A DNA stretch of 64,000 nt, taken from positions 1,165,204 to 1,229,203 of the forward strand of contig NZ_JAPNKE010000002.1 in assembly GCF_026626665.1 (NCBI RefSeq). The letters run 5' to 3'. The DNA is from Nannocystis pusilla (GTDB lineage: Bacteria > Myxococcota_A > Polyangia > Nannocystales > Nannocystaceae). The notes under the pieces were generated by a model. That model was not told where the DNA came from, did no database searches, and worked only from the letters and a program-made list of their open reading frames with translations. Positions 34,117 through 35,063 of the stretch are shown here, piece after piece. Positions within the stretch are counted from its first letter, which is position 1, and every line of letters begins with the position of its first letter. The position numbers and the translations under genes are program-made.

Positions 34117-35063
34117 TTGAACAAGACCTTCACGATCTTCGGCGGCAACTCGAACACGGCCCTCACCGCGGAGCTGTGCGACCACCTCGGCATCTCGCAG
34201 GGCAGGGCCCGGGCCGAGCGCTTCTCGGACGGCGAGATCTTCGTCGAGATCGGCGAGAACGTGCGCGGGGTCAACTGCTTCATCATGCAGTCGACCTGCT
34301 CGCCGCCGAATCGCAACTTGATGGAGCTCTCATCATGATCGACGCGCTCAAGCGGGCGAGCGCCGGGTCGATCGTCGCGCTGATGCCGTACTTCGGCTAC
34401 GCCCGCCAGGACCGCAAGGTCAAGCCGCGCACGCCGATCTCGGCCAAGTTGGTGGCCGACCTGCTGACCGCCGCGGGCGCCGACCGGGTGCTGGCGGTCG
34501 ATCTACACGCCGGCCAGATCCAGGGCTTCTTCAACATCCCGTTCGACCACCTGGTGGCGACGCCGGTGTTCCGCGACCTGCTCAAGCTCGAGGGTCTGCG
34601 CGGGCAGGAGGTCGTGGTGGTCTCGCCGGACGCCGGCGGCGTCGAGCGGGCCCGCCTGTACTCGAAGCTGCTCGACTGCCCGCTGGCGATCATCGACAAG
34701 CGGCGCGACGGGCCCAACGTCAGCCAGGTGATGCACCTCATCGGCGACGTGTCGGGCAAGCGGGCGATCCTCGTCGACGACATCATCGACACCGCCGGCA
34801 CGCTGTGCAACGCGGCCGAGGCGGTGCTCAAGGCCGGCGCGACCGAGGTCTACGCGGTCGCCACCCACGGGGTGTTCTCGGGCCCGGCGATGGAGCGCAT
34901 CAACAAGTCCGTCATCAAGCGGATCTGGGTGACCAATAGCTGCCCGCAGGAGGACCGGCTGGCCCGCTGCGACCGCCTCACGGTCGTCAGCCTGGGGCCG
35001 CTGCTGGCCGAGGCGGTCAAGCGCATTCACCACGGAGACTCGATCTCGAGCCTGTTCTACTGA
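34117..35063 (+). CDS. prs: Ribose-phosphate pyrophosphokinase, 1-nt frameshift at about 34325
   Basis: The N-terminal 72 aa and the C-terminal 295 aa (DLHAGQIQGFF, VLVDDIIDTAGT) lie in adjacent frames, joined at NLMEL/LIMIDAL. A missing C in ctcctc is the likely cause. Confidence 0.8.

Follow-up and report, generated by a model that had tools for sequence, protein, structure and literature searches.

The window, by which we mean the whole analysed stretch of 64,000 nucleotides of Nannocystis pusilla DNA, has a base composition of about 72% G+C and carries about 58 protein genes. Fourteen of these genes (about 24%), among them prs, dnaB and rpsF, carry frame-disrupting lesions, about 18 in all (counted from gene calls and a frame HMM). 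An earlier note on this DNA, made from the letters and their open reading frames, had listed more than a dozen such positions, and a frame-disrupting lesion was found within about 5 to 40 bases of every one of them. To resolve the lesions base by base we used as a control nine Logan-assembled contigs of sequencing run ERR2215891 (L087, L088, L091, L092, L093, L097, L101, L102 and L103), which were retrieved by exact-protein look-ups and together cover 45,531 bp, or 71% of the window. The genes whose lesions can be read against these contigs are as follows.

34117..35063, + strand: prs, ribose-phosphate pyrophosphokinase (315 aa when repaired); a C is missing between 34329 and 34330 (ctCctc reduced to ctctc); contig L092
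38969..39475, + strand: rpsF; one base, an A, is missing at 39381 (in the gccggAgccgga tandem, GCCGGA); contig L093
41147..42559, + strand: dnaB; two bases (CG in gcgcgcCGctt) are missing at 42095 and one (AAAA to AAA) at 42526; contig L097, intact at both
1909..2516, - strand: bPH_2-domain protein (202 aa); one base missing at 2483 (CCC to CC); same-strain contig L091, and also L089 and L090
9527..10878, - strand: putative lipoprotein (450 aa); one base missing at 10629-10632 (TTTT to TTT), with two adjoining substitutions; contig L087
16865..17690, + strand: PHP-domain phosphoesterase; two bases (CA in cccgCAcacg) missing at 17435; same-strain contig L101, which encodes 275 aa
32063..33525, - strand: M16 peptidase; a base lost at 32694-32696 (CCC to CC, + strand), repair of which gives 487 aa; contig L092
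49663..50993, - strand: FG-GAP/VCBS repeat lipoprotein (about 444 aa when repaired); two bases (AG of (AG)n) missing at 50958; contig L102
52627..54186, - strand: DLSPRTS Pro/Ser/Thr tandem-repeat protein; one base missing (TT to T) at 52649, altering the last 7 or so codons; contig L102
59898..60781, - strand: SsuB-like ABC ATPase; a base is missing at 60472 (CCC to CC); same-strain contig L103, in which the protein has 294 aa
63874..64000, - strand: last gene, cut by the window edge so that its 3' part is seen; a T is lost at 63942; contig L103

Results

Lesions in prs, dnaB and rpsF

In the window prs starts as a TTG-initiated ORF of 73 aa (34117-34338) that encodes the Prs N-terminus and then meets a stop, with the remainder of the protein in a second frame that runs to 35063, the split falling after residue 71. 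The DNA reads gagctctcatc where gagctCctcatc is needed; in its longer context it is written atggagctctcatcatg, and atggagctCctcatcatg would yield the conserved NLMELLIMID. The earlier note had given ctctc for an expected ctcctc among its examples of lesions, and the extra C is present in both L092 and L001, a 99%-identical second strain. Repaired Prs is an exact match to a deposited Nannocystis Prs, and a search of genome contigs with it returned more distant species among the matches listed, the best at 89% (L007). Exact look-ups of the 73-aa Prs fragment and of repaired DnaB found no exact record of either among deposited sequences.

The picture of adjacent ORFs in different frames, which describes prs and several other genes well, does not extend to dnaB. 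Here the window holds a single ORF of 470 aa, because the deletion at 42526 restores the frame lost at 42095, and residues of approximately 317 to 459 (about 143 residues, in the ATPase domain) are read out of frame. The site was resolved by means of L097, a contig found through the neighbouring kinase gene, in which the dnaB reading frame is uninterrupted.

The rpsF lesion replaces the acidic C-terminal tail of ribosomal protein S6 from residue 138, giving 168 aa instead of 166 and leaving the S6 core untouched. A missing G had been expected at this point; according to L093 the base lost is instead the A in gccggAgccgga. The further argument that loss of prs, dnaB and rpsF together is not viable stands for prs and dnaB and fails for rpsF, whose lesion affects the C-terminal tail only and would not be lethal alone. 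The repaired 166-aa S6 and the repaired M16 peptidase carry the strain's own amino-acid variants and are present in the protein collection solely through the ERR2215891 contigs.

Missing bases are present in contigs of the same strain

Over the 45.5 kb compared, the window and the ERR2215891 contigs differ by 6 substitutions and 20 indel events. With so few substitutions, the contigs are therefore taken to come from the same strain, and they are probably short-read data, as suggested by the sequence identity together with one poly-G contig end: L101 terminates in a run of about 20 G, at window position 19185, which is presumably a dark-cycle artefact of the kind typical of two-colour Illumina chemistry. 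A text search of the literature found no paper that mentions run ERR2215891.

All 20 indel events are deletions of one or two bases in the window (24 bases in total), with no insertions (sign test, p = 1.9e-6), and at each of these 20 covered sites the missing base or bases are present in the ERR2215891 contigs. The sites are 2483, 10632, 14555, 17435 (2 bp), 32696, 33710, 34330, 38815, 39381, 39730, 40238, 40256 (2 bp), 40263, 40569, 42095 (2 bp), 42526, 50958 (2 bp), 52649, 60472 and 63942. Twelve lie in genes (bPH_2, lipoprotein, PHP, M16, prs, rpsF, dnaB twice, FG-GAP, repeat protein, SsuB and the last gene) and eight are intergenic. Those at 2483, 42526, 52649 and 63942 are in-gene lesions additional to the ones listed previously, as are the eight intergenic deletions. 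Prs (315 aa), S6 (166), the M16 peptidase (487), the PHP protein (275), SsuB (294), the lipoprotein (450) and the bPH_2 protein (202) are all intact in the same-strain contigs. Elsewhere in the window, look-up of the aldo-keto reductase (55819-56868) gave no match, and neither did that of the HxlR protein with an ATG start (58416), for which the gene caller had taken an earlier GTG start.

The intergenic deletions, with one probable further error, are listed below.

14555: AA to A, upstream of tolB; L101, same strain
33706..33710: C5 to C4; L092, same strain
38813..40569, intergenic cluster: 38815 (G5, with a G>A), 39730 (T5 to T4), 40238 (G4 to G3), 40256 (C4 to C2), 40263 (T3 to T2) and 40569 (A3 to A2); L093
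36546..36551, probable further error: C5 in the window versus C6 in six contigs of other strains

Deletions follow homopolymer length

The rate of deletion per homopolymer run rises from 0.008% for single bases to 0.057%, 0.42%, 0.72% and 4.8% for runs of two, three, four and five bases respectively, so that five-base runs are hit about 600 times as often as single bases. The lesions had been described as single-base frameshifts in G/C runs. Many do remove one base, and several lie in C or G runs; others fall in A or T runs, in dinucleotide repeats or at non-homopolymer sites, and at least four remove two bases (17435, 42095 and 50958 among them). The four 2-bp deletions comprise one in a C4 run and three in dinucleotide repeats (CA, CG, AG), and single non-repeated bases are lost at two sites, 39381 and 63942. 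Three of the six substitutions adjoin a deletion. The isolated substitutions, four of four, are G to A (A in the window, G in the short-read contigs) and lie in G-rich contexts.

Intergenic DNA carries 1.83 deletions per kb (8 in 4.36 kb) and genes carry 0.29 per kb (12 in 41.2 kb), an intergenic excess of about six-fold (p = 3e-4). Homopolymer content accounts for this excess in part only, since it predicts that 17% of the deletions should be intergenic and 40% are. A depletion of deletions from genes is also what selection acting on real mutations would give.

Seven of the deletions cluster within 1.8 kb (38815-40569) and are therefore perhaps not independent events; three of the seven lie no more than 25 bp apart, between rplI, which is convergent, and a gene of 78 aa. 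The cluster probably stems from low local Nanopore coverage or from a sequence context that is hard to read. At each of its intergenic deletion sites L093 and L001 have the same sequence.

The window also shows an excess of G runs over C runs and a positive GC skew. Strand-specific loss of C runs was considered as a cause and rejected, because the 24 missing bases are set against a G excess of 3,600 bases and the Illumina contigs share the same composition.

Comparison with other strains reveals no decay

The second strain, L001 (GCA_049337375.1), is 99.0% identical to the window over positions 25915-46484. None of its 19 genes in these 20 kb is broken, as against four in the window. Across 17 genes the two sequences show 122 nucleotide differences that lead to 31 amino-acid changes; the four frameshifted genes, once repaired, differ from L001 at 22 nucleotides that lead to 4 amino-acid changes, with no in-frame stops. 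Judged by these differences, the repaired genes are under purifying selection, and the codon-position G+C signal seen by the HMM persists undiminished in the shifted frames. The frames are likewise uninterrupted in orthologues from at least five other Nannocystis assemblies.

A natural baseline for indels is given by the same-strain short-read contigs, which differ from L001 by four indels in 17.5 kb, all of them intergenic; true indels between the strains compared avoid genes. At every window-specific deletion in these 17.5 kb the short-read contigs and L001 agree against the window. Four of the 18 window deletions relative to L001 (27134, 30360, 34084 and 44697) are not errors, the same-strain contigs showing them to be real intergenic differences between strains.

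Sites resolved from other strains or from domain continuity

For the sites at about 19194, 49812, 53560 and 55193, and at 5505 and 5925, the support comes from other strains or from the continuity of a domain across the junction. Three further genes belong here.

5296..6643, + strand: TPR protein (449 aa in relatives); one base missing at 5505 (CCC to CC) and one at 5925 (AA to A); L089 and L090, contigs of other strains with 98.8-99.3% identity
17740..19391, + strand: fused MlaF-MlaE-like ABC ATPase/permease; the frame shifts from +0 to +2 near 19190-19200, within a run of (GC)n; frame HMM
54427..55420, - strand: SsuA/NMT1-like periplasmic binding protein; frame change at about 55192-55193; frame HMM

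A 3-periodic composition HMM trained on the intact genes of the window served as frame detector, same-strand switches away from gene boundaries being taken as its signal. Switches were found at 5510, 5924, 10628, 17451, 19194, 32691, 34330, 39370, 42080, 42527, 49832, 50939, 55157 and 60463. The HMM recovered eight of the nine reference-confirmed in-gene lesions then known and missed the one at 2483. ORF lists alone are poor detectors of such lesions because at 72% G+C the wrong frames remain open.

The MlaFE-like lesion at about 19194 is probably a 1-bp deletion; a Pfam MlaE hit (positions 11-207 of 212) spans the junction, and the same-strain contig L101 ends before it, at 19185. In the SsuA-like gene the Pfam NMT1 hit (3-216 of 216) runs in one stretch across the junction, and the lesion would be CCC to CC on the gene strand (ggcggcCctgac). 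The Pfam ABC_tran hit of the SsuB-like ATPase (1-136 of 137) similarly runs across its frame junction. The Pfam hits of the PHP and FG-GAP genes do not span their junctions, and these sites were resolved from L101, L102 and an alignment of relatives (A1).

That alignment bears on a second lesion in the FG-GAP gene, at about 49812 (49810-49813), where the frame shifts in the sense of a 2-bp deletion. A reduction of G6 to G4 on the gene strand, repair of which would restore ...GDGQGGFAPH..., had been predicted beforehand, and four of four close relatives read RRGDGQGGFA(P/Q)H. In the DLSPRTS repeat gene, which adjoins a gene of the sigma-70 family, the motif continues in another frame at about 53545-53575, a net change of -2 or +1; its relatives encode a single ORF whose repeat number varies and whose length is 453-499 aa (alignment A2).

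Discussion

The broken prs, dnaB and rpsF and about 12 other interrupted genes of the window are not real pseudogenes, because contigs that are probably short-read data of the same strain carry the covered genes intact. We regard it as almost certain that the frameshifts are consensus errors of a Nanopore-only assembly rather than mutations in the organism. The earlier note had proposed systematic long-read indel errors in place of pseudogenes, and this is borne out by the same-strain contigs, in which the missing bases are present at 20 of 20 sites, by the uniform direction of the indel differences, all of them deletions, and by their dependence on homopolymer length.

It is established that in homopolymers and short tandem repeats R9.4.1 basecalling reports too few bases. 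If the window DNA is part of the assembly of strain Na p29T (DSM 14622), as is probable, it would derive from Flongle R9.4.1 reads that were assembled with Flye and polished with the same long reads only, and under-counting would leave a consensus lacking one or two bases at about 0.44 sites per kb. Where such a site lies inside a gene the reading frame would shift and, since at 72% G+C the wrong frames often remain open, the outcome would be either two abutting ORFs, as in prs, M16, PHP, SsuA, SsuB and FG-GAP, or one ORF with an out-of-frame stretch, as in dnaB and the tail of rpsF. The published N. pusilla Na p29T genome (ASM2662666v1), of which we infer from species name, accession series and contig size that the window is a part, was sequenced on an ONT Flongle R9.4.1 and processed with Guppy, Flye, two rounds of Racon and two of Medaka, no short-read polishing being mentioned (PMC10435759). 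The suspicion of an uncorrected long-read or MAG assembly was thus right as to the long reads; the genome is that of an isolate, sequenced from pure culture, and not a MAG (PMC10435759). Without short-read polishing, R9.4.1 consensus sequences are left with indels in homopolymers, and these shift reading frames (PMC9262707).

The residual indels of R9.4.1 assemblies made with Flye, Racon and Medaka resemble those of the window in being deletion-biased and homopolymer-dependent, in fragmenting gene calls, in being absent from short-read data and in occurring about once per 2 kb. The window differs from plain R9.4.1 homopolymer errors in its four 2-bp deletions, three of them in dinucleotide repeats, in the loss of two single non-repeated bases, in intergenic events denser than homopolymer content predicts and in isolated substitutions that are G to A in four of four cases. 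Frameshifted genes and a dependence on homopolymer length are also features of 454, Ion Torrent and low-coverage PacBio CLR data. However, those platforms give both insertions and deletions, whereas the window has 20 deletions to no insertions and its documented platform is Nanopore.

Repeat contraction is in general a signature of mismatch-repair deficiency, and the Nanopore-sequenced culture could in principle have truly acquired the deletions, had it been a mismatch-repair-defective stock and had ERR2215891 been derived from another or an earlier stock of the strain. Coding DNA carries 6-fold fewer deletions than intergenic DNA, as if selection had removed some coding frameshifts, and alone among the observations the intergenic excess tilts towards genuine mutations on which selection has acted. 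This tilt is outweighed because prs and dnaB are hit, because deletions exceed insertions by 20 to 0, because substitutions are few and because the method is documented. Both prs and dnaB are essential in bacteria and both would be inactivated, with no second copy of either seen in the window; a mutator would also gain insertions and many transitions, in place of 20 deletions, no insertions and 6 substitutions in 45.5 kb; lesions in about 24% of the genes are incompatible with a growing culture; and the published method, which lacks short-read polishing, suffices to explain the pattern. Real mutation in the sequenced stock is accordingly very improbable.

A genuinely decaying genome in the N. 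pusilla lineage would explain why so many genes are disrupted in one window, and Mycobacterium leprae and recent obligate symbionts, whose genomes are rich in pseudogenes, likewise have many genes interrupted by frameshifts. In such genomes, however, the lesions are confirmed by accurate reads and accompanied by stops and large deletions, selection is relaxed and essential genes are spared, none of which holds in the window. The lesions are not reproduced in the same-strain contigs, where all covered genes are intact, the 22 nucleotide differences of the repaired genes lead to 4 amino-acid changes and to no nonsense codons, codon-position G+C is undiminished in the shifted frames, and essential genes are among those hit. 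The contig is moreover 11.95 Mb in length, and N. pusilla is a free-living, culturable soil myxobacterium. We give decay even less credence than a mutator stock. Slighter still, to the point of being negligible, is the prospect that the genes work as written, their frames restored by programmed ribosomal frameshifting or transcriptional slippage. Some lesions do sit in short runs where slippage is conceivable, and in prfB (+1) and dnaX (-1) one protein is likewise encoded in two frames, but the prfB and dnaX sites recur in orthologues and are marked by defined slippery motifs, whereas those of the window are unique to one assembly and heterogeneous. The 20 sites share no common motif, comprise -1 and -2 lesions as well as non-repeated bases and occur also between genes, and the frames are uninterrupted both in the orthologues and in the same-strain contigs.

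With the frameshifts read as consensus errors, they represent no biological feature of N. pusilla and offer no new biology; their importance is practical and concerns annotation, gene calls in the window and in the assembly as a whole being unreliable. Overall, deletions occur in the window at 0.44 per kb (Poisson 95% range about 0.27-0.68); extrapolated to the 11.95-Mb assembly, this would correspond to some 3,000-8,000 missing bases. Some erroneous products have already entered RefSeq and UniRef as normal proteins. The 168-aa frameshifted S6 is an exact match to MCY1005014.1 / WP_267766632.1 (N. pusilla, 11,948,136-bp contig), the 470-aa DnaB with its 143 nonsense residues is an exact match to MCY1005019.1 / WP_267766636.1 and UniRef A0A9X3EKS3, and the FG-GAP product annotated in the assembly of the window is a 354-aa fragment (P0146). 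Intact neighbours in the window match MCY1004994-MCY1005034, with locus tags OV079_. Gene calls, pseudogene counts and analyses of the pan-genome and of biosynthetic gene clusters call for caution until the assembly has been polished, and other findings in the N. pusilla window should be read with missing-base errors in mind.

There is a slim chance that a minority of the differences, such as the crowded intergenic deletions at 38.8-40.6 kb and the uniform G to A substitutions, have an origin other than plain homopolymer miscalls, either in real heterogeneity between stocks of the type strain or in systematic Nanopore miscalls at chemically modified bases. In the latter case a DNA-modification motif in N. 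pusilla would be indicated.

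Substitutions and clustering of deletions

In addition to the missing bases, the window differs from the short-read contigs, assembled from a run that we take to be of the same strain, by isolated substitutions (11986, 13791, 23992 and 38814). In all four, which lie in G-rich contexts, the window reads A where the contigs read G, and the one at 13791 changes Glu to Lys in a TonB-like protein. The uniform replacement of G by A looks like a systematic substitution error of the consensus.

Of the deletion events, in which one or two bases are missing from the window relative to the same contigs, seven form a cluster inside 1.8 kb (window 38813-40569), and three of these seven fall inside 25 bp at 40238-40263. 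Overall, the density of deletions in intergenic DNA is six times that in genes, and it exceeds the prediction from homopolymer content. GC skew is positive over nearly the entire window (mean approximately +0.08, with a peak of +0.18 at 52-56 kb), and runs of four or more bases number 389 for G versus 111 for C. Since the short-read contigs have the same skewed composition, the richness in G is real and was not made by the deletions.

A single polypeptide encoded at window 17740-19391 combines an ABC ATPase domain with an MlaE permease domain. At this fused MlaF-MlaE-like gene there is a break in short-read contig L101, which terminates in a poly-G tail (L101 5118-5137; window 19150-19215) exactly at a (GC)n-rich stretch and 5-15 bases ahead of the lesion inferred in the gene. 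Because the break adjoins this lesion, the (GC)n-rich spot would have been difficult for both sequencing technologies.

Erroneous proteins in databases

Wrong translations derived from the assembly of the window stand in databases as normal proteins:

Erroneous translations, by window coordinates
38969-39475, ribosomal protein S6, 168 aa (MCY1005014.1; WP_267766632.1; UniRef A0A9X3EIY9)
41147-42559, DnaB, 470 aa with approximately 143 residues out of frame (MCY1005019.1; WP_267766636.1; A0A9X3EKS3)
49663-50993, fragment named 'VCBS repeat-containing protein', 354 aa

Protein clusters also contain truncated homologues of window genes from a different N. pusilla assembly (12,694,743-bp contig, proteins MFY05326xx). 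There DnaB has 300 aa, HipA 340, an SNF2 helicase 533 and the TonB-like protein 93, and the GNAT homologue is too long, at 331 aa versus 261. That assembly probably has an indel problem of a like kind.

Other loci and intergenic repeats

The order tRNA-Gln(UUG), prs, rplY (L25/Ctc), pth at window 34011-36487 is ordinary, with the tRNA gene occupying the seemingly empty stretch ahead of prs. At 22304-23868 a toxin gene of the HipA family (424 aa) adjoins a small HTH (HipB-like) gene, and this module is unbroken in the window and the short-read contig alike. At 51403-54186 a gene for a repeat protein, with conserved N- and C-terminal domains flanking DLSPRTS-type Pro/Ser/Thr tandem repeats, is followed immediately downstream on the same strand by a sigma-70-family gene (400 aa). 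The number of these repeats varies among Nannocystis strains, and the repeat protein has no Pfam family on record.

Palindromic intergenic repeats occur at window 8629-8700 and 44660-44740, with the core GAAGGGCATGTCC...GGACATGCCCTTC and tandem copies that contain GGGCATG. Two short-read contigs (L087 and L097) start or stop inside such repeats, which suggests that they form a dispersed family. Adjoining them, approximately 420 bp (window 44699-45116) have no alignment to another strain (GCA_049337375.1), to which the flanks are 98.5-99% identical; as judged from this alignment, the stretch is a strain-specific intergenic segment.
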